A stretch of DNA of 64,000 nucleotides from an uncultured Bacteroidota bacterium (GTDB lineage: Bacteria; Bacteroidota; Bacteroidia; Flavobacteriales; BACL11): positions 88,171 through 152,170 of the forward strand of contig CACAMX010000001.1 in the NCBI GenBank assembly GCA_902533655.1. Reading direction: 5' to 3'. Position 1 is the stretch's first letter. Each line of letters starts with the position of its first letter. The position numbers and the translations under genes were made by a program. The notes under the pieces were generated by a model that was given only the letters and a program-made list of their open reading frames with translations, did not search any database and had not been told where the DNA came from. Shown in pieces: positions 21,259 to 45,000 of the stretch.

Positions 21259-21582
21259 ATGATATTAGTTAGCGATAATGCAAGAGACAAGTTAAACCAA
21301 CTGCTGATTGAAGACAATAGCGGAAAGGAATACGTAAGAGTTGGCGTTGAAAGCGGTGGTTGCTCTGGTCTTGTTTATAAACTTGATTTTGATGATAGCA
21401 TGAACAATGAAGATGAATTAGTTGAGCATAACGATATTAAGCTCGTTATTAACAAAAAAAGTATTTTATTTCTAGCAGGCACAACATTAGAGTACTCATC
21501 CGGACTAAATGGCAAAGGATTTGTATTTAACAATCCTAATGCAAACAGGACTTGTGGCTGTGGAGAAAGTTTTTCATTATAA
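21259..21582 (+). CDS. A-type Fe-S cluster carrier (IscA/SufA/ErpA family)
   Basis: 107 aa. GGCSG and a C-terminal CGCGESF motif. Confidence 0.9.
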
Positions 21583-21590
21583 ATAGAGGC

Positions 21591-23048
21591 ATGAAAATTG
21601 AACCAAAAATATCCGAAGATATTTTACTGGACGAAGTAACCAGTAAAGAATATGAATATGGTTTTACAACAAACATTGAATCTGAGAAAATTGAAAAAGG
21701 TTTAAATGAAGATGTAATCAAATTCATTTCCAAGAAAAAAAATGAACCAGATTGGATGCTTGATTTTAGGCTTGAAGCCTTTAAGGTTTGGAAAGAAATG
21801 GAGGAACCTGATTGGGCCAATATAAATTATCCAAAGCCAGATTATCAGGACATAGTTTACTACTGCGCACCAAAACAAAAGAACAAATTAAATAGTCTTG
21901 ACGATTTGGATCCGGAGATGAAAAGAACATTTGATAGACTTGGAATTTCTATTGACGAACAAAAAAGACTAGCTAATGTAGCTGTGGATATCGTTATGGA
22001 TTCTGTTTCAGTTGCAACATCATTCAAAGAAAAATTAGCTGAACTCGGAATTATATTTTGCCCAATTTCAGAAGCTATTCAAAAATACCCTGAGCTTGTC
22101 AAAAAATATATTGGTACAGTTATTCCTGTAAGAGATAATTTTTTCTCCGCATTAAATTCTGCAGTTTTTTCAGATGGATCTTTTTGTTACATTCCTAAAG
22201 GAACAGTGTGCCCTCTGGAATTATCTACTTACTTCAGAATAAACGAAGCGGGTACTGGGCAGTTTGAGAGAACGTTAGTTATTGCCGAAGAAGATAGTTG
22301 TGTTAGTTATCTTGAAGGTTGCACTGCTCCAATGCGAAATGAAAACCAGTTGCACGCTGCTGTTGTTGAGTTAGTTGCACTGGATAGTGCTGAGATTAAA
22401 TATTCTACGGTTCAAAATTGGTACCCTGGTGATAAGAATGGTAAGGGTGGCGTATTTAATTTTGTAACTAAAAGAGGGATTTGTCATGATAATGCTAAAA
22501 TTTCTTGGACACAAATTGAAACAGGTTCAGCAGTCACATGGAAGTACCCCTCTTGTGTATTAAAAGGAAAAAATTCCATTGGTGAATTTTTCTCTGTCGC
22601 TGTTACAAACAACTTTCAACAAGCCGATACAGGAACTAAAATGGTTCATTTGGGTGAGAATTCAAAAAGTACAATTATCGCTAAAGGAATATGCGCAGGT
22701 AAAAGTAACGGAAGCTATCGAGGTCTTGTAAAAATTGCAAAAGGCGCTAAAAATTCAAGAAATTTTTCACAGTGCGACTCATTGTTGATGGGAGACAAGT
22801 GTGGTTCTCACACATTCCCCTACATCGAAGTTGATAATAAATCTTCGCAAGTAGAACATGAGGCAACAACATCTAAAATTGGAGAGGATCAAATATTTTA
22901 TTGTAATCAAAGAGGTATAGGAACTGAGGAAGCTGTTGCACTTATTGTTAATGGATATTGTAAAGAAGTTTTAAACAAATTACCAATGGAATTTGCTGTT
23001 GAGGCAAAGAAATTATTAGAAATTAGTCTAGAAGGCTCTGTTGGATAA
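21591..23048 (+). CDS. sufB: Fe-S cluster assembly scaffold SufB
   Basis: I prefer the ATG at 21591 (MKIEPK...), which removes the overlap with the preceding gene. The SufB core includes YSTVQNWY and FPYIEV. Confidence 0.95.
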
Positions 23049-23804: not shown

Positions 23805-25019
23805 ATGTTGATTGAAGAAATAAAAAAATATGTTGTTGATGCTGACTTGACCAGTACACAAAAAAAGAGCCTTGATTACTTCCTTGAAAATGGATTTCCA
23901 ACAACAAAAGACGAAGATTGGAAATATACATCTTTAAAAAAAGTTTTAAAGAGAAAATATTGCCTAAAATCCTCTGATTTTGAACTAAATGATGAGATGA
24001 TTCAACAATATTCTCTAGGAGTTAAGGACAAAATAATATTTAAAAACGGTAAGATTTATTCAGAGCCGAAAATCTTAGGTGTAAGTATTAAAAAAATGAA
24101 AGACCTAGTGATGCCAAAAAATAGTGCTTTGTGCTATTTGAACGAAGCAATCTGTGAAAATAGTTATGAAATTGTATTTGACAAAAATTTAAATCTAGAT
24201 AATCCTATCGAAATTTTACATTTTATCAATAATTATAATGATTACTTTTTGCAGCTTAGAACAAAGATTACTTGTGGTTCTGGTTCAAATGTAAAATTAG
24301 TTGAGAGATTTTGCAACATAGGAAACAACACATTAATCAACAGTTGTATGCACGCAGATGTTAAAAGAAATAGCTTTTTTGAAATTAGTAAATTACAAAG
24401 TTATAATGACAACACGCATACCATTGACAACACTTTAGTGGACCAAGACAGAGACTCCACTGCTAATGTTCATACATTTAGTTTTGATGGGTCTTTTATT
24501 AGAAATAATCTAAACTTTTACCAAAACAATGAAAATTGTACAAGTAATATGAACGGAATAACTATCATTGACAAATCTAATTTTGTTGATCACCACACTT
24601 TCGTTGATCACAAATTTCAAAACTGCTTAAGTAATGAGTCATATAAAGGTGTATATTTTGACAGTACTAAGGGGGTTTTTAACGGAAAAATCATGGTAAG
24701 ACCAGATGCTCAAAAAATTAATGCTTTCCAGTCAAACAACAATTTATTATTTAGTGACAACGCCAGTATTAAAACGAAACCGCAGCTGGAAATCTATGCT
24801 GATGATGTGAAGTGTAGTCATGGCTGTACAATTGGACAAATTGACAAAAAGTCCCTTTTTTACATGAGATCACGTGGTTTCTCAGAAAAAACTGCAAAGG
24901 GACTTTTAACTTTCGCATTTTTAATTGAAGTTATTGAAAAGCTTAATGCCAAAGAAATTGTTGATTACGCAAAGACTGAAATAGCAAAAAAACTTTCAAT
25001 TGAAAAGGATTTATTGTGA
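23805..25019 (+). CDS. sufD: Fe-S cluster assembly protein SufD
   Basis: 404 aa. Supported by position between sufC and sufS and by C-terminal PQLEIYADDVKCSHG. Confidence 0.88.
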   Translation: MLIEEIKKYVVDADLTSTQKKSLDYFLENGFPTTKDEDWKYTSLKKVLKRKYCLKSSDFELNDEMIQQYSLGVKDKIIFKNGKIYSEPKILGVSIKKMKDLVMPKNSALCYLNEAICENSYEIVFDKNLNLDNPIEILHFINNYNDYFLQLRTKITCGSGSNVKLVERFCNIGNNTLINSCMHADVKRNSFFEISKLQSYNDNTHTIDNTLVDQDRDSTANVHTFSFDGSFIRNNLNFYQNNENCTSNMNGITIIDKSNFVDHHTFVDHKFQNCLSNESYKGVYFDSTKGVFNGKIMVRPDAQKINAFQSNNNLLFSDNASIKTKPQLEIYADDVKCSHGCTIGQIDKKSLFYMRSRGFSEKTAKGLLTFAFLIEVIEKLNAKEIVDYAKTEIAKKLSIEKDLL

Positions 25020-26230
25020 TTGATTTTGAAAAAATTATAAGTAGTTTTCCAATACTTGATGTAAAAGTTAACGATAATAAACTTGTGTATTTTGACAATG
25101 CTGCAACCACACAAACACCTACTCAAGTTACAAACAGTATAAGAGATTATTTTAATAAACAGAACTCAAATATACACAGAGGGGTACATTATCTCAGCAA
25201 TATATCAACAGAAGATTTTGAACAGAGCAGAAAAAAAGTAAAAGAGTTTATTGGGGCTGAGAAAGATGAAGAGATTGTATTTACTAAAGGAACAACTGAT
25301 TCTATTAACTTAGTAGCAACATCTTACCAAAAATTTCTTAACCCTGGGGATGAAATTTTAATCTCTGAAATGGAACATCATTCTAATATTGTTCCTTGGC
25401 AACTATGCGCTGAAAAAACTGGTGCAAAACTAAAGGTTGTGTCAGTCACTAAAGAAGGAGAAATAGATATGGACCATTTAGAAAAGCTTTTAAATGAAAA
25501 AACAAAAATTTTATCAATCACTCACATATCTAATACCTTAGGAACTATAAATCCAATTAGTGAAATAACTAAATTAGCTCGCAAATTTGATGCTAAAGTG
25601 TTCATTGATGGAGCACAAGCAATTGCTCATCAAAAAGTAAATGTGACAGAGTTAGATGTAGACTTTTACTGCTTCTCAGCTCATAAATTATATGGGCCGA
25701 CAGGAGTAGGTGTTTTATATGGTAAAGAAGAGATTTTAGAAAAGTTGCCTCCATATCAAGGAGGTGGTGAAATGATTGAATTGGTAACTTTTGAAAAAAC
25801 AACATATGCAAAGTTGCCGTCGAAATTTGAGGCTGGAACTCCAAATATTTCTGGAGTGATTGCTTTGGGCAGGGCTATTGAATTTATCGAAGAGATTAAT
25901 TTAGATTTAATATTTGAATATGAGGCTATGTTGTTAAACCATTACAACGAAAAATCAACTATACTTGAGTATTATGAGCCTTTTGGAACAAGTTTAAATA
26001 AATCGGCAATCGCTTCATTCAATTTAAAAAAAGCACATCACTATGACATTGGTGTACTTTTAGACAATATGGGTATTGCGGTCAGAACCGGTCATCACTG
26101 CACTCAACCTCTACACAAAAAATTTAATTTATCTGGAACCATTAGAGCATCTTTTGGGATTTATAATACCAAAAGTGAAATCGATTATTTCTTTGATTGC
26201 CTAAGCAGGGCTTACAAAATGTTGTATTGA
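25016..26230 (+). CDS. sufS: cysteine desulfurase SufS
   Basis: FSAHKLYGPTG PLP-Lys motif and RTGHHCTQP active-site Cys loop. Confidence 0.93.
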   Translation: MIDFEKIISSFPILDVKVNDNKLVYFDNAATTQTPTQVTNSIRDYFNKQNSNIHRGVHYLSNISTEDFEQSRKKVKEFIGAEKDEEIVFTKGTTDSINLVATSYQKFLNPGDEILISEMEHHSNIVPWQLCAEKTGAKLKVVSVTKEGEIDMDHLEKLLNEKTKILSITHISNTLGTINPISEITKLARKFDAKVFIDGAQAIAHQKVNVTELDVDFYCFSAHKLYGPTGVGVLYGKEEILEKLPPYQGGGEMIELVTFEKTTYAKLPSKFEAGTPNISGVIALGRAIEFIEEINLDLIFEYEAMLLNHYNEKSTILEYYEPFGTSLNKSAIASFNLKKAHHYDIGVLLDNMGIAVRTGHHCTQPLHKKFNLSGTIRASFGIYNTKSEIDYFFDCLSRAYKMLY

Positions 26231-26655
26231 TGACAAGCGTTGAAAAAACACAAAATGAAATTGTTGAGGAATTAAGTTTATTCACGGACTGGATTGAAAA
26301 GTATGAGTACTTAATAGAGCTTGGAAAAGATGAAATTGATTTTGATAAAAGGTTCATGAAAGATGAATTTCTAATAAATGGTTGTCAGAGTAAAGTATGG
26401 CTATATGCGAAACAAAACAATAGTAAAGTTACTTTTCATGCATACAGTGATGCTATAATGACAAAGGGTATAATTGCTCTTCTAATAAAAGTTTTTTCGA
26501 ATCAATCACCAGATGATATCATTAACTCAAAGCTTGATTTTATAGACAAAATTGGTTTAAAAAGCCACTTATCAGCAACAAGAGCAAATGGATTAATGTC
26601 CATGATAAAGCAAATAAAAATTTACGCGATCGGATTTAAAGAAAAAAATGGATAA
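26230..26655 (+). CDS. sufE: sulfur acceptor SufE
   Basis: I prefer the ATG at 26230, which gives a TGATG overlap with the sufS stop. It has the INGCQSKVW active-site Cys motif. Confidence 0.88.
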   Translation: MTSVEKTQNEIVEELSLFTDWIEKYEYLIELGKDEIDFDKRFMKDEFLINGCQSKVWLYAKQNNSKVTFHAYSDAIMTKGIIALLIKVFSNQSPDDIINSKLDFIDKIGLKSHLSATRANGLMSMIKQIKIYAIGFKEKNG

Positions 26656-32326: not shown

Positions 32327-32368
32327 TTGAAAAGTTTGGGTAAATGTACATTTTATTTACTTTATTTA

Positions 32369-32647
32369 TCACAATTCAAGTTTGTCTTTTAATAAAAATA
32401 TATAAAGAAGTTCGTTTTGTTTAATTGTACATTTTTGGCAGTGAGATATATAAGTAAATTCAAAATGTTTGTTAATTTCAAACCCCTTGTTAGTTAATAA
32501 AAACTTGTTATCACACTCAACACTTCCTTTTGGGCAAAACCTTCTGATTCTATAAAGCTCGCCTATTTTTTGAATATGAAACCACGAACCCGAACCAATT
32601 CCAGAAAGCCATTGTGAGTTAGGTGGGATGTTGAAGGGTTTTTTCAA
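32369..32647 (-). CDS. 92-aa protein with CX6C...CX2C (possible metal-binding), unknown function
   Basis: The TTG start is 2 nt after the upstream stop. Cys residues sit at FCPKGSVEC and HCQKC. Confidence 0.5.
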   Translation of the reverse strand: MKKPFNIPPNSQWLSGIGSGSWFHIQKIGELYRIRRFCPKGSVECDNKFLLTNKGFEINKHFEFTYISHCQKCTIKQNELLYIFLLKDKLEL

Positions 32648-32649
32648 GG

Positions 32650-33303
32650 CTAATAGTTTTCAATACTTGTAAAATAAGACTTTAAGAATGATTTTTTTAT
32701 AGTCTTTATTTTTTTATTTTCAATAACATAGTATTCTTTATTGCCAATACAAACATTTCTTTTTGGTGATGGAGAAACAGTTACTGGTAAAAAAAGTCTC
32801 AACTTTTTAAATGAAAATTTTAGAGATTTAAACATTAGTTTAGAAACAAATCTAGAGCAATTGGTTCCAAAGATATTTAACGGACCATAAACAATCATAT
32901 CTTTTTTTTGTAATTTTTTTGCACAATTGTAAGACTTTGTAAAACTTACTTTTTTCATCACAGAAGCGTACATTTTTCCTTTTCCGTGAGTTGATTTTTT
33001 ATCAGCTGTTTCTAACAAAATTGAATGCAGATTTGTTAGCTTGTTATTCTTAATTTTTGGTTTTGTTAAAATTTTTAAATCTGGGTCAGTAACCTCATCT
33101 CTAACTCTTCCAAATCCATTTGGCGTGTGGTATCTTCCAAAATCAAAATAATTTATACTTTCTAATTCATTGTTAATCAAAATAATTGCTGAGTGCCCAA
33201 CTCTATACATTCCGTTTTTTGACAGAAAGAAGTCATACCAGGAATCAGCGTTTTTTACCATACCCTCAGGCCATGCCAATACTATTATTGTGCCGTTTTG
33301 CAT
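32650..33303 (-). CDS. LRAT/PLAAT-like (permuted NlpC/P60) putative thiol acyltransferase/hydrolase
   Basis: YRVGHSAIIL, GRYHTP and GTNCSRFVSKL occur in the same order as the His-His-Cys motifs of the LRAT/HRASLS family (YRHWAIYVG, VVHLAP, NCEHFV), though the His-to-Cys gap is about 20 residues longer. The start overlaps the decarboxylase stop (TAATG). Confidence 0.55.
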   Translation of the reverse strand: MQNGTIIVLAWPEGMVKNADSWYDFFLSKNGMYRVGHSAIILINNELESINYFDFGRYHTPNGFGRVRDEVTDPDLKILTKPKIKNNKLTNLHSILLETADKKSTHGKGKMYASVMKKVSFTKSYNCAKKLQKKDMIVYGPLNIFGTNCSRFVSKLMFKSLKFSFKKLRLFLPVTVSPSPKRNVCIGNKEYYVIENKKIKTIKKSFLKSYFTSIENY

Positions 33304-34697
33304 TAATTACTAATCTTTTTTAGGCGCTCATAATTTTCCTCAACAAAATCTTCCATAATTTTAAAGAAGTCTTTGACCTCATCTATATCATTTTGAGAAT
33401 TTACATTAACTAACCTTACAAATGTTTTGTGTGCGTGAGACCCATAACTCACCATTAACTTATTAGAGAAATAAAGCTGATTACATAAATCAATAGAGTC
33501 GATATTTTTATATGTAAAACAAATTGGTAATGAGTATCTTGGGCCTATGAGTTTGTATTCTGATTTTTCCGATAAATATTCTTTAATTTTATTTGAAATT
33601 AAAAGTTGTTTTTCCACAATGTTTTGTATTCCAATACTTCCAACACTTTTCCATAATGTCCAAAATTTTAATGCATTATTTCTTCTTCCACACTCCAAAG
33701 ATGTCTTACCTAAATTATATTTGTCATTATGTGTTTGGAACAAATAATTGGCATCTGTATCAAATGAACGCAATAAGTCTTGATCATTTTTAAATAATAA
33801 GACAGAACAGCTTAGAGGGGCTCCTAAAGTTTTATGAGCATTAAAACAAAATGAATCTGATTTTTCTATTCCCCTCAAGAGTTCTTTGTGTTGTTTGGAA
33901 AAAATTAATGACCCCCCAAAAGCACCGTCAATATGCAACCACAAATTATATTTTTTACATATTTTCGAGATTTCATCAAAATTATCAAATGAGCCTAATA
34001 CTGTAGCTCCAGCTGTAGTATTAACATAAAAAGGACATAAGTTGTTTTTTAAATCAATTTGAATGCTTTTTTCGAGCTCTTTGCAGTTCATTTCTCCATT
34101 ATTATCAACAGAAATAGATCTAATGTTATTAATTCCTATACCTGAAAAAGAAACATTTTTTTTAATTGAATAGTGTGCTGTTTCTGAACAGTAAAGGATG
34201 AGTCTTTTTTTTGATTCACCATCAAGTCTATGATTACTAATCTTGTCTCTTGCTGCGACCAATGTCATAAAGTTACTCATTGACCCCCCTGTTGGGAAAG
34301 TACCTCCATATCCAAAGGGATATTTAATTTTTTTTCTAACTTCCTCTAAAATCTGTTTTTCAATCAAAGTTTGTATTCCTGAGATTTTGTATGTTGCCAT
34401 ACTGTTATTTAGTAAAACCGCAAGAAGATCTCCTATGACAGATTTACTATGTCTGCCTCCAAATAGTTGATTAAAAAATCTTTTAGATGAAGTTTTTGGG
34501 GTTTCTTTTATAACTTCTCTTAGTATTTGATAAAACTCCATATCATCAGTTGGGCTATCATTAAGACTGATGTCGACAACCTTTAGAAGTTCCTCTGGGT
34601 CTTTAAATACTGGCTCATTGTTTTCGCTTGAGATTAGCTCATTAACAATTTTAATAAATTGCAAAAGGTCTTTACTAATATTGTTTTTTTCTTTCAT
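33303..34697 (-). CDS. group II PLP-dependent amino-acid decarboxylase (CSAD/GAD clade)
   Basis: FFNQLFGG, GGSMSNF, WLHIDGAFGGS and FNAHKTLG (PLP Lys). I prefer the ATG at 34695-34697 over the TTG at 34700. Confidence 0.9.
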   Translation of the reverse strand: MKEKNNISKDLLQFIKIVNELISSENNEPVFKDPEELLKVVDISLNDSPTDDMEFYQILREVIKETPKTSSKRFFNQLFGGRHSKSVIGDLLAVLLNNSMATYKISGIQTLIEKQILEEVRKKIKYPFGYGGTFPTGGSMSNFMTLVAARDKISNHRLDGESKKRLILYCSETAHYSIKKNVSFSGIGINNIRSISVDNNGEMNCKELEKSIQIDLKNNLCPFYVNTTAGATVLGSFDNFDEISKICKKYNLWLHIDGAFGGSLIFSKQHKELLRGIEKSDSFCFNAHKTLGAPLSCSVLLFKNDQDLLRSFDTDANYLFQTHNDKYNLGKTSLECGRRNNALKFWTLWKSVGSIGIQNIVEKQLLISNKIKEYLSEKSEYKLIGPRYSLPICFTYKNIDSIDLCNQLYFSNKLMVSYGSHAHKTFVRLVNVNSQNDIDEVKDFFKIMEDFVEENYERLKKISN

Positions 34698-34702
34698 CAA
34701 GA

Positions 34703-34710
34703 CAAAATTA
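34703..34710 (-). promoter_or_regulatory. -7 box TAATTTTG (minus strand), 5 nt upstream of the decarboxylase ATG
   Basis: The plus strand reads caaaatta, an exact TAnnTTTG on the minus strand. Confidence 0.35.
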
Positions 34711-34765
34711 GAAATAACATTTTATCAAATTGGCCTATTTAGAAAATAGTTTCTCCGGTATTTCT

Positions 34766-35915: not shown

Positions 35916-35921
35916 TCACAA

Positions 35922-36752
35922 ATCGAAAAAAAAATTATCAGAAATTTACATGATGAACTCAATGTTGAAGTTCTATCATATGAACCTACAAGTGGAGGTT
36001 GTATCAACTCTTGCTTTAAAATTATAACAAGCCAAGGAAATTATTTTATCAAATACAATAAAAATGCAAAAGACGATTTTTTTAAAAAAGAAGCTGATGG
36101 ACTTTCATTGTTGAGCTCTTCGAACTCTTTCAAAACTCCAAAAGTTTTAGCTATTAATAAAAATTATTTAGTTCTTGAGTTTCTACAAGCTGGAGGCGAA
36201 AAATGTTGGAGAGAATTTGGAAAAAATTTGGCGGCTTTACACTCATGTCATAGTTTAAAATTTGGGCTAAATAGTGACAATTATATTGGCACTTTAAATC
36301 AAAAAAACTTGTTTTATGACAAGTGGTGTGACTTTTATATAAATAATAGAATCATTCCTTTGATTAAGGGCATGGATTATGACAAAAAAATAGTTAATAA
36401 ATTAGAAAAGCTTATGCTGAAACTAGATGATTTTTTTGACAATAATATGAAGCCCTGCTTGATTCATGGTGACTTGTGGGCCAATAATTTTATGTTTTGT
36501 GAAAATAATGAAATTGGTTTGTTTGATCCATCTGTTTACTATGGTTGTAGCGAAACTGATATTGCAATGAGCAAATTATTTGGTGGATTTGACAAGTCTT
36601 TTTATGAATCATATTACTACTATGCTCCTAAAACTAGTAAATCAAATGAAAGAATAGAAGTGTTAAAAATATACCCACTTCTAGTGCATGCAAAACTTTT
36701 TGGAAAAAGCTATCTTGAGGATGTTAGGTTAATTTTAAATAATCTATTGTAA
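35922..36752 (+). CDS. fructosamine/ketosamine-3-kinase-family protein; start codon unresolved
   Basis: LIHGDLWANNF and FDPSVYYGCSETDIAM kinase motifs. A conserved N-terminus (IEKKIIRNLHDELNVEVLSYEPTSGGCINSCFKI) is encoded upstream of the ORF-track TTG at 36108. No ATG, GTG or TTG lies in frame between 35916 and 36104, so I place the start provisionally at ATC 35922. Confidence 0.75.
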   Translation: MEKKIIRNLHDELNVEVLSYEPTSGGCINSCFKIITSQGNYFIKYNKNAKDDFFKKEADGLSLLSSSNSFKTPKVLAINKNYLVLEFLQAGGEKCWREFGKNLAALHSCHSLKFGLNSDNYIGTLNQKNLFYDKWCDFYINNRIIPLIKGMDYDKKIVNKLEKLMLKLDDFFDNNMKPCLIHGDLWANNFMFCENNEIGLFDPSVYYGCSETDIAMSKLFGGFDKSFYESYYYYAPKTSKSNERIEVLKIYPLLVHAKLFGKSYLEDVRLILNNLL

Positions 36753-42948: not shown

Positions 42949-44703
42949 GTGAGCGTTAAAAAAGAAGAAATTATTAAAAAACTTCCTCAAAAGATTGGGG
43001 TATATAAGTTTTTAGATTCTACAGATAAGATTATTTATGTTGGTAAGGCAAAAAACCTTAAAAAAAGAGTTGGGTCTTATTTCAGCAAAAAAACAAGTGG
43101 AAAAACATTAAGATTAGTAAATAAAATTGATGACGTTAAGTACATTTTAGTTCAAAATGAACTTGATGCTTTACTGCTTGAGAATAATTTAATTAAAAAA
43201 CATCAGCCAAAATACAATGTGTTAATGAAGGACGATAAGTCATATCCTTGGATAAAAATAACTAAAGAAAATTTTCCCAAAATTTTCTTTACAAGAAAAG
43301 TTGTGAATGATGGTTCTGATTATTTTGGGCCATATAAATCAACTTATGTAATAAATGTACTCATTGACCTTTTTTATGATATGTTTTATGATAATGGGTG
43401 GACTCCTATCACATTATTAAAAAACAAAGTAAATTCACAAAAAAATGAAAAATATCAAGAAATAATAAAGAAGATAAAATCCATTTTAAAAGGAAATTTA
43501 AAAATTCTAATAAATCAATTAAGCATAAAAATGGAAAAACAATCAGAACTTTTAAATTTTGAAGAAGCAAAAAAAATTAAATCTAAGATTGATTTATTAA
43601 AAGACTATAGATCAAAATCAATTATAGTTAGCTCTAAGATTAGCAACGTGGATGTTTTTTCCCTTGTCTCTAACAGTCTTACTGCAGTAGTAAATTATCT
43701 CTCTATCATAAATGGTTCAATCGTTTTGTCTCATATTATGGAGTTTAAAAAAAGACTCTCTGAAAAAGATGAAGAAATTATGAGGCTTGCTATAATTCGT
43801 TCAAGAGAAGTTTTTAATAGTAAATCAAAAACCATATACAGTAACATTAAAATTAGTGAGATATATGAAAATGTCAACATTTTTTATCCAAAAATTGGCG
43901 ATAAAAAAAAGTTGCTGATACTATCTGAAAGAAATGCAAAATATAATCTACTTGAAATTGAAAGAAAAAAACTTAAAGAGAATGAAAGGTCAAAAACCAA
44001 ACCCTCATTAATTTTTTTGATGAAAGACCTTAAGTTAAAAACCATTCCTAATCACATTGAGTGTTTTGACAATTCTAATATTCAAGGCTCCTTACCTACT
44101 TCGTCATGTGTTGTTTTTAAAAAAGGGCTTCCATCTAAGAAAGACTATAGAATTTTTAAAATTAAAACAGTAACAAAAGCTGATGACTTTGCTAGTATGA
44201 GAGAGGTTGTTTTTCGAAGATATAAAAGAGTGTTAGATGAAAAGGGAGCCCTTCCTGATTTAATTGTTATTGATGGTGGGAAAGGTCAATTAAGCTCGGC
44301 TAAAGAAAGCTTGAAAAGATTGGGGCTTTTTGGAAAAATTGCTATAATAGGCATTGCTAAAAAGCTAGAAAGCATTTATTTTCCCAATGACAAGATTCCG
44401 TTATTCATAGATAAAAAATCGCCAAGCTTAAAATTAATTCAAACAATTAGAAATGAAGCACACAGGTTTGCTATCAATTATCATAAAAAAAGGAGACTAA
44501 AAAGTGCTCTTTCAAGCGCTCTAACTGATATTGATGGTATAGGTGAAAAAACCGCTGAATTATTAATTAAGAAGATTGGATCTGTGAGAAGAATATATGA
44601 AACTGATTTAGATGTTTTATCATCAATTATTGGTGAGAAGAAAGCGAGTTTGGTTTTAACTGGTCTGACCTCTGTATTTGAGAATACCACCAGAGAGATT
44701 TAA
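42949..44703 (+). CDS. uvrC: excinuclease ABC subunit C
   Basis: GTG start. GIY-YIG motif (GVYKFLD..IIYVGKAKNLKKR), an endonuclease domain, and a C-terminal HhH (IDGIGEKTAELL). Confidence 0.93.
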   Translation: MSVKKEEIIKKLPQKIGVYKFLDSTDKIIYVGKAKNLKKRVGSYFSKKTSGKTLRLVNKIDDVKYILVQNELDALLLENNLIKKHQPKYNVLMKDDKSYPWIKITKENFPKIFFTRKVVNDGSDYFGPYKSTYVINVLIDLFYDMFYDNGWTPITLLKNKVNSQKNEKYQEIIKKIKSILKGNLKILINQLSIKMEKQSELLNFEEAKKIKSKIDLLKDYRSKSIIVSSKISNVDVFSLVSNSLTAVVNYLSIINGSIVLSHIMEFKKRLSEKDEEIMRLAIIRSREVFNSKSKTIYSNIKISEIYENVNIFYPKIGDKKKLLILSERNAKYNLLEIERKKLKENERSKTKPSLIFLMKDLKLKTIPNHIECFDNSNIQGSLPTSSCVVFKKGLPSKKDYRIFKIKTVTKADDFASMREVVFRRYKRVLDEKGALPDLIVIDGGKGQLSSAKESLKRLGLFGKIAIIGIAKKLESIYFPNDKIPLFIDKKSPSLKLIQTIRNEAHRFAINYHKKRRLKSALSSALTDIDGIGEKTAELLIKKIGSVRRIYETDLDVLSSIIGEKKASLVLTGLTSVFENTTREI

Positions 44704-45000
44704 AACCTTTTCAAAACCCACCCTTCTTAAAAACATTTGAGCTTGAGCAGATCTTCCTCCAGATTTGCATTGAGCAATAATTAGCTTCTGCTTGAAATTT
44801 TCTAATTCATCAACTTTATTAGACAATTCTGACATTGGGACTAATTTATCAACGCCAATAATATGTTGATTATTAAACTCATATTCTTCTCTTACATCAA
44901 TCAAGACAAAATCTAACTGGTTCTTTTTTCTTAATTCAATCATTTGCTCTAACTCAGAGCCGTCAATTTTATCTTTTTTTAACAGACTTTCAATTTTCAT
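44656..45000 (-). CDS. rhodanese-domain protein
   Basis: 114 aa. AQCKSGGRSAQA active-site loop and LSGGILKY. It has a 48-nt convergent overlap with uvrC and an 11-nt overlap with lysS. Confidence 0.85.
   Translation of the reverse strand: MKIESLLKKDKIDGSELEQMIELRKKNQLDFVLIDVREEYEFNNQHIIGVDKLVPMSELSNKVDELENFKQKLIIAQCKSGGRSAQAQMFLRRVGFEKVLNLSGGILKYRGQTS

Follow-up and report, generated by a model that had tools for sequence, protein, structure and literature searches.

We analyzed a 64-kb stretch (64,000 nucleotides (nt), hereafter the window) of contig CACAMX010000001.1 from an uncultured Flavobacteriales bacterium, in which three open reading frames (ORFs) packed on the minus strand encode a group II decarboxylase dependent on pyridoxal 5'-phosphate (PLP), a TseH-like cysteine enzyme and a small protein (Table 1). 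All coordinates are positions within the window, and junctions and motifs were read from the ORF list together with the sequence. The decarboxylase ORF meets the next one in a TAATG junction, with base 33303 common to both; the TAG stop of this second ORF is followed by 2 nt and then by the TTG start of the third (32647), and a purF-like gene begins 42 nt past the stop of the third ORF. An earlier annotation made without database searches (hereafter the sequence-only reading) had described this packed trio with its TAATG overlap, 2-nt gap, promoter box and downstream purF, and every coordinate it gave was confirmed. We propose that the three ORFs make up a single transcription unit for only two enzymes, of which one makes a beta-amino acid and the other carries out acyl chemistry on it. 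We assign this explanation as a whole a probability of roughly 0.5.

The motif TAnnTTTG is the established Bacteroidetes -7 promoter consensus. The copy ahead of the trio, TAATTTTG, ends 2 nt before the TTG codon at 34700 and 5 nt before the ATG at 34697, which is probably the true start of the decarboxylase gene. A box ending 5 nt from this ATG implies a leaderless or near-leaderless decarboxylase mRNA in the sub-clade to which the window belongs. Most marine relatives also have a TAnnTTTG box ahead of the decarboxylase gene, typically at a distance of 23-37 nt from the ATG.

Table 1. Features of the window discussed in the text, with positions counted from its first nucleotide.
Feature	Positions	Strand	Remarks
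Group II PLP decarboxylase, 465 aa	33303-34700	minus	TTG start; second codon is ATG at 34697
TseH-like catalytic half, 217 aa	32650-33303	minus	ATG start
DUF6695 C-terminal domain protein, 92 aa	32369-32647	minus	TTG start
Bacteroidetes-type -7 box, TAATTTTG (consensus TAnnTTTG)	34703-34710	minus	sequence reading
Possible -33 element, TTTG	34726-34729	minus	read from sequence only; 15 nt upstream of the -7 box; weak
purF-like class II glutamine amidotransferase, 628 aa	30440-32326	minus	GATase domains; below the TIGR01134 cut-off
PKD and CHU_C protein, 378 aa	34779-35915	plus	divergent upstream gene
Fructosamine-kinase-like ORF (PF03881)	35916-36752	plus	listed from TTG 36108
sufB (suf operon)	21552-23048	plus	operon 6-10 kb from the trio
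sufS (suf operon)	25016-26230	plus
sufE (suf operon)	26197-26655	plus
Rhodanese-like stretch	44674-44907

The 465-aa protein matches PF00282 (2.6e-78, 263.8 bits against a cut-off of 27, profile positions 1-375), and its nearest solved structures are mouse GADL1 (6enz, 3.9e-74) and human and mouse CSAD (2jis and 6zek), followed by GAD67 and GAD65. The sequence-only reading, which had expected PF00282 and a CSAD/GAD-like enzyme, was thus borne out for this protein; NCBIfam held no equivalog model that reached its cut-off. The motifs FFNQLFGG, GGSMSN, WLHIDGAFGGS and NAHK were all found, and NAHK, which contains the PLP-binding lysine K290, aligns to NPHK of CSAD, GADL1 and GAD. PMC8153620, citing Agnello et al. 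2013, describes three positions that govern GAD versus CSAD selectivity. In HMMER alignments to the CSAD, GADL1 and GAD67 chains, these positions read F80/S100/A102 in the window decarboxylase, F/S/Y in CSAD, Y/S/Y in GADL1 and S/N/F in GAD67. The earlier description of the enzyme as Phe/Ser/Ala, CSAD-like at two of three positions, therefore held chain by chain, and the full CSAD motif Phe/Ser/Tyr is not present, since the third residue is Ala and not Tyr. Orthologues in the near clade of marine Flavobacteriales carry FSA (n = 32), YSA (n = 6) or WSY (n = 2), so that the position equivalent to CSAD Phe94 is Phe, Tyr or Trp. The window protein is an ordinary member of the known CSAD/GADL1/GAD clade, distinguished by an unusual third selectivity residue.

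Phe94 of CSAD blocks substrates of glutamate size, and both CSAD and GADL1 use cysteine sulfinate and aspartate (bioRxiv 10.1101/2020.09.25.308866). From its residues, the window decarboxylase should accept aspartate, cysteine sulfinate or cysteate: an aromatic gate at Phe80 points to acidic substrates of four-carbon size and hence to a beta-amino acid product, that is beta-alanine, hypotaurine or taurine. JGI labels orthologues as sulfinoalanine decarboxylase or aspartate 1-decarboxylase, and GADL1-type enzymes make beta-alanine (PMC7367687). A homology search of the window found no cysteine dioxygenase (CDO) homologue. We consider beta-alanine at least as likely a product as the hypotaurine expected from CSAD identity.

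The 217-aa protein matches the Pfam family PF25218, "TseH-like", over residues 6-161 (1.9e-44, 152 bits against a cut-off of 27), and this was the only Pfam match at E<=1; neither PF04970 (LRAT) nor NLPC_P60 appeared. An AlphaFold2 (AF2) model of the protein (predicted local distance difference test score (pLDDT) 82.6) was compared with solved structures by Foldseek, and the sole significant match was TseH (6v98; E 6.4e-8, probability 1.00, template modelling score 0.61 by query and 0.71 by target), and the structural alignment shows an identity of ~18%. Searches of the PDB by sequence and by profile likewise returned only TseH 6v98 (profile 2.3e-5), and the GH...GRY and NC..F motifs of the two proteins are aligned. 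The motifs YRVGHSAII (His37), GRYH (His59) and NCSRFV (Cys149) were found in the 217-aa protein, with 112 residues from His37 to Cys149. Across 165 of 165 family sequences, H37, D54, R57, Y58, R66, R68, C149 and R151 are invariant. The catalytic His thus precedes the Cys, and both are invariant, an order and conservation that fit the TseH-like family; on sequence and fold similarity, we describe the protein as a predicted circularly permuted NlpC/P60 papain-like Cys/His enzyme of the TseH-like/DUF6695 family. Its four invariant arginines suggest an anionic substrate.

The permuted NlpC/P60 group comprises five clades, YiiX, LRAT, TseH (equivalent to Pfam DUF6695), Tox-Act1 and DUF4105, and its characterized members act on lipid acyl groups (PMC12994826). 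The sequence-only reading had proposed an LRAT/PLAAT-like, membrane-lipid-dependent enzyme with a catalytic His/His/Cys set, and had expected a match to PF04970/LRAT or to the NlpC-P60 clan. Of this proposal, the permuted papain-like His...Cys order stands, as does membership of a clade beside LRAT; the closer kinship does not, because Pfam gave PF25218 in place of PF04970, Foldseek found no PLAAT or LRAT match for a model that matches TseH, and hhalign to an approximate PLAAT3 sequence reached a probability of 0.8%, which is not significant. Given the lack of a PF04970 match, the link to LRAT is drawn from the literature. The catalytic set is reduced to His37 and Cys149, since the position of His59 is His in 72, Ile in 63, Val in 12 and Gln in 9 of the 165 sequences, so that Ile, Val or Gln replaces His in over half, and it is Lys in TseH. 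Dependence on a membrane lipid is not supported: the 217-aa protein has no signal peptide or hydrophobic segment (maximal Kyte-Doolittle mean over 19 residues, 0.83), and no membrane anchoring is indicated.

To place the 92-aa protein and the neighbors of the trio, we used two samples of loci, for which the window protein and a PanD-linked protein served as the similarity queries. The genome sample holds 80 loci, 51 from closer marine Flavobacteriales (>=47% identity) and 29 more distant (38-50% identity); the metagenome sample holds a further 80, scanned with an alignment of 8 sequences. Neighboring genes in both were called with our own simple ORF caller.

The 92-aa protein matches PF20405, "DUF6695 C-terminal domain" (3.7e-26, 91.6 bits against a cut-off of 25). 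When the 217-aa protein was used in an exhaustive search, 316 cluster representatives were found, of which many have lengths of 300-395 aa; each of the 10 long representatives scanned has PF25218 and, after it in the same polypeptide, PF20405. Fused proteins are likewise encoded in the 80 metagenome loci. In all 80 genome loci the DUF6695-C coding region lies directly after the TseH-like region; where the genes are split, they usually overlap by 4 nt, and an overlap or a gap of <=2 nt is found nearly everywhere. A homologue search with the 92-aa protein itself returned 11 close relatives and no fused forms, the fused forms having come from the search with the 217-aa protein. The fused relatives and the fixed adjacency indicate that the pair in the window arose by gene fission of a two-domain enzyme, and the 92-aa protein is accordingly its detached C-terminal domain, neither a third enzyme nor an immunity protein. 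The sequence-only reading had treated it as an independent mini-protein with a CX6C...CX2C pattern. The four cysteines are present (C38-x6-C45 and C70-x2-C73), but the protein is not independent and the cysteines are not conserved as a set: Ser stands in place of C38 in 60 of 81 sequences, C45 is kept in 77 of 81, C70 in 74 of 80 and C73 in 60 of 80, H69 is mostly kept, and the PanD-linked subgroup has none of the four. A zinc-ribbon or other four-Cys metal-binding mini-protein was considered and rejected on account of this poor cysteine conservation.

The fusion also bears on whether the pair could be a toxin with its immunity protein, the 217-aa protein being an antibacterial effector of the TseH type and the 92-aa protein its antidote. 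PF25218 is named after TseH, a type VI secretion system (T6SS) effector of Vibrio cholerae, conflict-type contexts have been described for the TseH clade (PMC12994826), and immunity genes are typically small ORFs placed downstream. Against this, both parts form one polypeptide in all long relatives tested, the pair is fixed and vertically inherited between housekeeping genes across the whole order, no secretion-system, PAAR, VgrG or Rhs genes occur among the neighbors scanned, and the 217-aa protein lacks the signal peptide or hydrophobic segment noted above. Because PF25218 and PF20405 are fused in relatives, we rejected this interpretation, which we hold to be extremely unlikely.

Within the marine Flavobacteriales, the trio is embedded in a conserved region. 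The closest genomes, with 95-96% identity, are the uncultured marine Flavobacteriales TMED84, SP47 and the single cells AG-913-I23 and AH-716-K08. The decarboxylase gene is present in 39 of the 43 closer loci that have >=1.5 kb of upstream sequence and is directly adjacent in 31, and a purF-like gene occupies the same downstream position in 50 of 51. The trio, whose synteny across Flavobacteriia genomes the sequence-only reading had named as a check, is thus syntenic in marine Flavobacteriales. A glutaredoxin gene (~77 aa) lies between DUF6695-C and purF in 42 of 51 loci, usually overlapping DUF6695-C by 11 nt; its product is closest to mycoredoxin-type models, below threshold. This gene is absent from the window and from its four closest relatives, and the window keeps only 42 nt at this position (32327-32368).

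The 29 distant genome loci lack purF and glutaredoxin, and the decarboxylase reappears in some of them. In 7 distant loci with different flanks, a group II decarboxylase 32-37% identical to that of the window lies directly upstream; these loci belong to Bacteroidales, with one from Sphingobacteriia and one from Flavobacteriales, and the selectivity motif is YSY or FSY. In 4 of the 7, a CDO-like cupin (PF05995, 27 bits) precedes the decarboxylase, and a peroxiredoxin, a thioredoxin or a rhodanese-thioredoxin fusion occurs in the same gene string. A CDO-like cupin, in places a peroxiredoxin, a YSY decarboxylase and the TseH-like gene follow one another in one string, with thioredoxin or rhodanese-thioredoxin genes on its flanks, in the metagenome-assembled genomes of loci L055, L056, L064 and L067, which are labelled Bacteroidales. 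This string may represent a route from cysteine to hypotaurine in a lineage usually regarded as anaerobic.

An unrelated decarboxylase is coupled to the enzyme elsewhere. Among fused representatives, a PALP enzyme, the fused TseH-like/DUF6695 gene and PanD form three overlapping genes. This PanD scores above the TIGR00223 cut-off, and the nearest models to the PALP enzyme are those of cysteate synthase CapA, cystathionine beta-synthase and CysK, with no cut-off reached. Of the 80 metagenome loci, at least 28, with varied flanks, have a PanD gene that overlaps the fused gene at its 3' end. When 164 loci were clustered at 70% identity into 65 lineages, 33 of the 65 had a decarboxylase among the nearest co-oriented genes, a group II PLP enzyme in 20 and PanD in 13. 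Other arrangements were also seen: in one metagenome group a Lrp/AsnC regulator overlaps the 5' end of the fused gene, in a further group the neighbor is a haloacid dehalogenase-type (HAD) hydrolase, and in 5 other distant loci and one metagenome contig a DinB-superfamily gene and TANGO2 lie directly upstream. In loci L057, L060, L062, L079, L082 and L083, TANGO2 (PF05742) and the DinB-superfamily gene are upstream of, and overlap, the TseH-like gene. TANGO2 has been reported as an acyl-CoA-binding protein (CoA, coenzyme A; PMC11867700). Its function is debated, a Cys Ntn-hydrolase fold having also been reported, and the TseH-like context may help in this debate.

Could the adjacency be conserved gene order only, with neighbors kept by descent under a shared promoter and no functional relation between them? 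The whole region, from ileS through the PKD/CHU_C protein, the trio and purF to an S46 peptidase, is syntenic within the marine clade, and the decarboxylase gene lies 3-6 kb away in a few relatives, as would be expected on that account. Shared ancestry of the order, however, explains neither the return of the adjacency in distant lineages with unrelated flanks nor its return with a non-homologous decarboxylase. Mere synteny was rejected because of this non-orthologous replacement, and we regard it as very unlikely. Two non-homologous decarboxylase families in different flanks make inherited gene order an improbable cause and indicate a link to the product of decarboxylation. The earlier proposal that the cysteine enzyme uses the amine made by the decarboxylase therefore gains strong support for the coupling itself, from the linkage to both PLP enzymes and PanD, and we hold a functional coupling of the cysteine enzyme to the decarboxylase product to be reasonably probable. 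Acyl chemistry on that amine is a more tentative matter, taken up below.

The identity of the product can be narrowed by the same contexts. Beta-alanine is the sole product common to PanD and to GADL1/CSAD-type enzymes, the CDO-like neighbors indicate hypotaurine in Bacteroidales, and the CapA-like PALP neighbors leave a path from cysteate to taurine open. The redox neighbors raise the question of whether the genes instead form a module for thiol or oxidative stress that is co-regulated and chemically uncoupled, with hypotaurine made from cysteine sulfinate as an antioxidant and the cysteine enzyme acting on another target, such as thiol conjugates or oxidized lipids. The glutaredoxin gene of the marine loci speaks for such a module, as do the rhodanese-thioredoxin fusion, which overlaps the DUF6695-C gene in Bacteroidales, and the recurrence nearby of peroxiredoxin, thioredoxin, DinB-superfamily and CDO-like genes. 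Yet the PanD-linked and Lrp-linked groups show no redox neighbors, the glutaredoxin gene has been lost in the lineage of the window, and any enzyme whose catalytic Cys is sensitive to oxidation could be expected to have redox neighbors just as much; we consider this account unlikely.

The PanD linkage allows another account, in which both the PLP decarboxylase and PanD are housekeeping aspartate 1-decarboxylases serving CoA and pantothenate homeostasis, and the TseH-like enzyme is an accessory factor, either a sensor or regulator of the beta-alanine supply that responds to acyl-CoA or CoA, functionally analogous to PanZ/PanM, or a hydrolase of pantetheine or CoA thioesters. A PanD above the equivalog cut-off does overlap the TseH-like gene, and a CysK/CBS/CapA-like PALP gene is often directly upstream, cysteine and beta-alanine being the amino-acid-derived parts of pantetheine. 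Replacement of PanD by a PLP-dependent GAD homologue is documented in archaea (PMC7142369, citing Tomita 2014), the production of beta-alanine by GADL1-type enzymes (PMC7367687) fits this role, and so does the reported acyl-CoA binding of the alternative neighbor TANGO2. A search found no panD within the 64-kb window or the flanks of marine relatives. On the other side, no panB, panC or coa genes occur among the annotated neighbors, a PLP decarboxylase has no need of a maturation factor, and the CDO-like neighbors in Bacteroidales favor cysteine sulfinate over aspartate. We judge this account to be possible, if somewhat unlikely.

We return to the explanation that we prefer, in which the trio encodes two enzymes. 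The first, a cytoplasmic group II PLP decarboxylase, would release beta-alanine, hypotaurine or taurine. The second is a soluble two-domain permuted NlpC/P60 cysteine enzyme, split in the window into the 217-aa catalytic half and the translationally coupled 92-aa domain. His37 would activate Cys149, with Asp54 likely as the third residue, to form a thioester acyl-enzyme; the acyl group would then pass from Cys149 to the amino group of the amine that the decarboxylase makes or, in the other direction, such an N-acyl conjugate would be hydrolyzed, and the four invariant arginines may hold the anionic end of the substrate. Acyl transfer or hydrolysis is favored because the fold family uses a Cys thioester and its characterized branches move or cleave acyl groups. 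The substrate, the reaction direction and the acyl donor of the cysteine enzyme are inferred, and N-acyl transfer to, or hydrolysis from, this amine in particular is a tentative proposal that we consider rather doubtful. The most extended form of the proposal is a widespread, undescribed cytoplasmic pathway of Bacteroidota in which the TseH-like enzyme, as a housekeeping relative of a T6SS toxin and of LRAT/PLAAT enzymes, acylates or deacylates through a Cys149 thioester the beta-alanine, hypotaurine or taurine of the adjacent decarboxylase. Such a pathway would yield N-acyl or N-acetyl beta-amino acids, or else a related thiol-linked conjugate, and would serve in osmotic or oxidative protection or in CoA homeostasis; taken jointly, these claims are speculative and somewhat improbable.

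Several observations weigh against our explanation. About half of the lineages have no adjacent decarboxylase and carry a Lrp/AsnC regulator, DinB with TANGO2, a HAD hydrolase or a Wzx-like gene instead, from which it follows that a neighboring decarboxylase is not strictly needed; several of the lineages scored as having none are short contigs. The neighbor frequencies are biased by the choice of the window protein and the PanD-linked protein for sampling, and the neighbor genes themselves come from the simple ORF caller. An AF2 model of the 217-aa and 92-aa proteins concatenated, run as a single sequence, gave no confident structure (pLDDT 32). The substrate of TseH itself is disputed between peptidoglycan and phospholipid (PMC12994826), and the hydropathy of the 217-aa protein indicates neither a lipid donor nor membrane association. 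Finally, the beta-alanine needed for CoA is ordinarily supplied by PanD as a housekeeping enzyme, so the adjacency of PanD could reflect CoA or pantothenate homeostasis and not a specialized N-acyl product.

Other features of the window were examined alongside the trio. The purF-like gene is probably in the same transcript as the trio, and we do not argue that it is a member of the pathway. Its product scores 123 bits against TIGR01134, where the cut-off is 350, and by similarity it is predicted to be a long, divergent Bacteroidota form of amidophosphoribosyltransferase. The divergent upstream gene encodes a PKD protein with a CHU_C type IX secretion signal; at the same position, relatives have an LTD/CotH/PKD/CHU_C protein of 1100-1190 aa, and the version in the lineage of the window is much shortened. 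The fructosamine-kinase-like ORF that follows covers only profile positions 66-286 as listed, while the same frame continues upstream without interruption as far as the stop codon of the gene before it. This extension supplies the N-terminal part absent from the listed ORF (…SGGCINSCFKI…) but has no ATG, GTG or TTG upstream, so that either its start codon is non-canonical or its start was mis-called. Homology searches of the window for CDO, TANGO2, glutaredoxin, PanD, Lrp and PALP found no homologues, and the only matches of these searches were the rhodanese-like stretch and sufB. A scan of positions 1-64000 at Rfam gathering thresholds found no RNA family. The suf operon of the window lies 6-10 kb from the trio, and in another group of Bacteroidota (loci L106, L108, L113-L115 and others) sufB is the divergent neighbor of the Lrp/AsnC and TseH-like pair, which suggests that the TseH-like gene and the suf region have long been linked.

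The TseH/DUF6695 clade is known so far only through a Vibrio toxin of disputed substrate, and a full-text literature search found no description of a TseH-like enzyme paired with decarboxylases. Linkage to two unrelated decarboxylase folds and to thiol-redox proteins provides a concrete substrate hypothesis for an uncharacterized enzyme family. It is likewise relevant to where beta-alanine, hypotaurine and taurine come from and what becomes of them in abundant marine Flavobacteriales; these compounds matter for marine pools of organic sulfur and nitrogen.

How does the locus compare with known systems? Animal CSAD and GADL1, the nearest solved relatives of the decarboxylase, share with it the aromatic residue at the Phe94 position and the Ser at the second motif position, whereas the clade of the window has Ala instead of Tyr at the third. 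The taurine pathway through CDO and CSAD in bacteria (Agnello et al. 2013, cited by PMC8153620 and PMC12585060) resembles the arrangement in Bacteroidales relatives, where a CDO-like gene stands before the decarboxylase, and differs from that in the window, within whose 64 kb no CDO gene is found. A cysteine-based taurine route has already been proposed for marine flavobacteria (PMC12585060, citing Agnello 2013). In Enterobacteria, a small aspartate decarboxylase is paired, genetically or physically, with a CoA-thioester sensor of acyltransferase fold, PanD with PanZ/PanM (PMC3398536, PMC4410942), much as PanD overlaps the TseH-like gene in many Bacteroidota. PanZ has a GNAT fold, unlike the papain-like TseH-like enzyme, the pairing described here is one of genes, and the window decarboxylase is PLP-dependent, with no need for maturation.

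PLAATs N-acylate amines, and their acyl-enzyme chemistry is the model for the mechanism that we propose. The LRAT/PLAAT family (HRASLS, PF04970) and the 217-aa protein both belong to the permuted NlpC/P60 branch (PMC12994826, PMC3142127) and have a similar N-C-x-x-F-V motif around the nucleophile. They differ in that the second His is not conserved and the membrane anchor is missing in the 217-aa protein, in whose family the four invariant arginines suggest an anionic, possibly small, substrate.

The closest likeness is to TseH (VCA0285), the Vibrio cholerae T6SS effector solved as 6v98, which shares the Pfam family PF25218, is the sole significant structural match and is permuted in the same way, its catalytic His lying close to the N-terminus and its Cys close to the C-terminus. 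TseH shows phospholipase activity that depends on its catalytic Cys in a liposome assay at pH 8.9, and the TseH/DUF6695 clade has been treated as conflict-related (PMC12994826). Most of the family appears to consist of cytoplasmic two-domain enzymes that are inherited vertically in Bacteroidota. Whereas TseH is secreted as a toxin, is accompanied by an immunity gene and lacks the DUF6695 C-terminal domain, the window protein is soluble, vertically inherited and of housekeeping type, with a dedicated C-terminal domain and a context of amino-acid and thiol metabolism, and this housekeeping branch could clarify the evolutionary source of the toxin branch.

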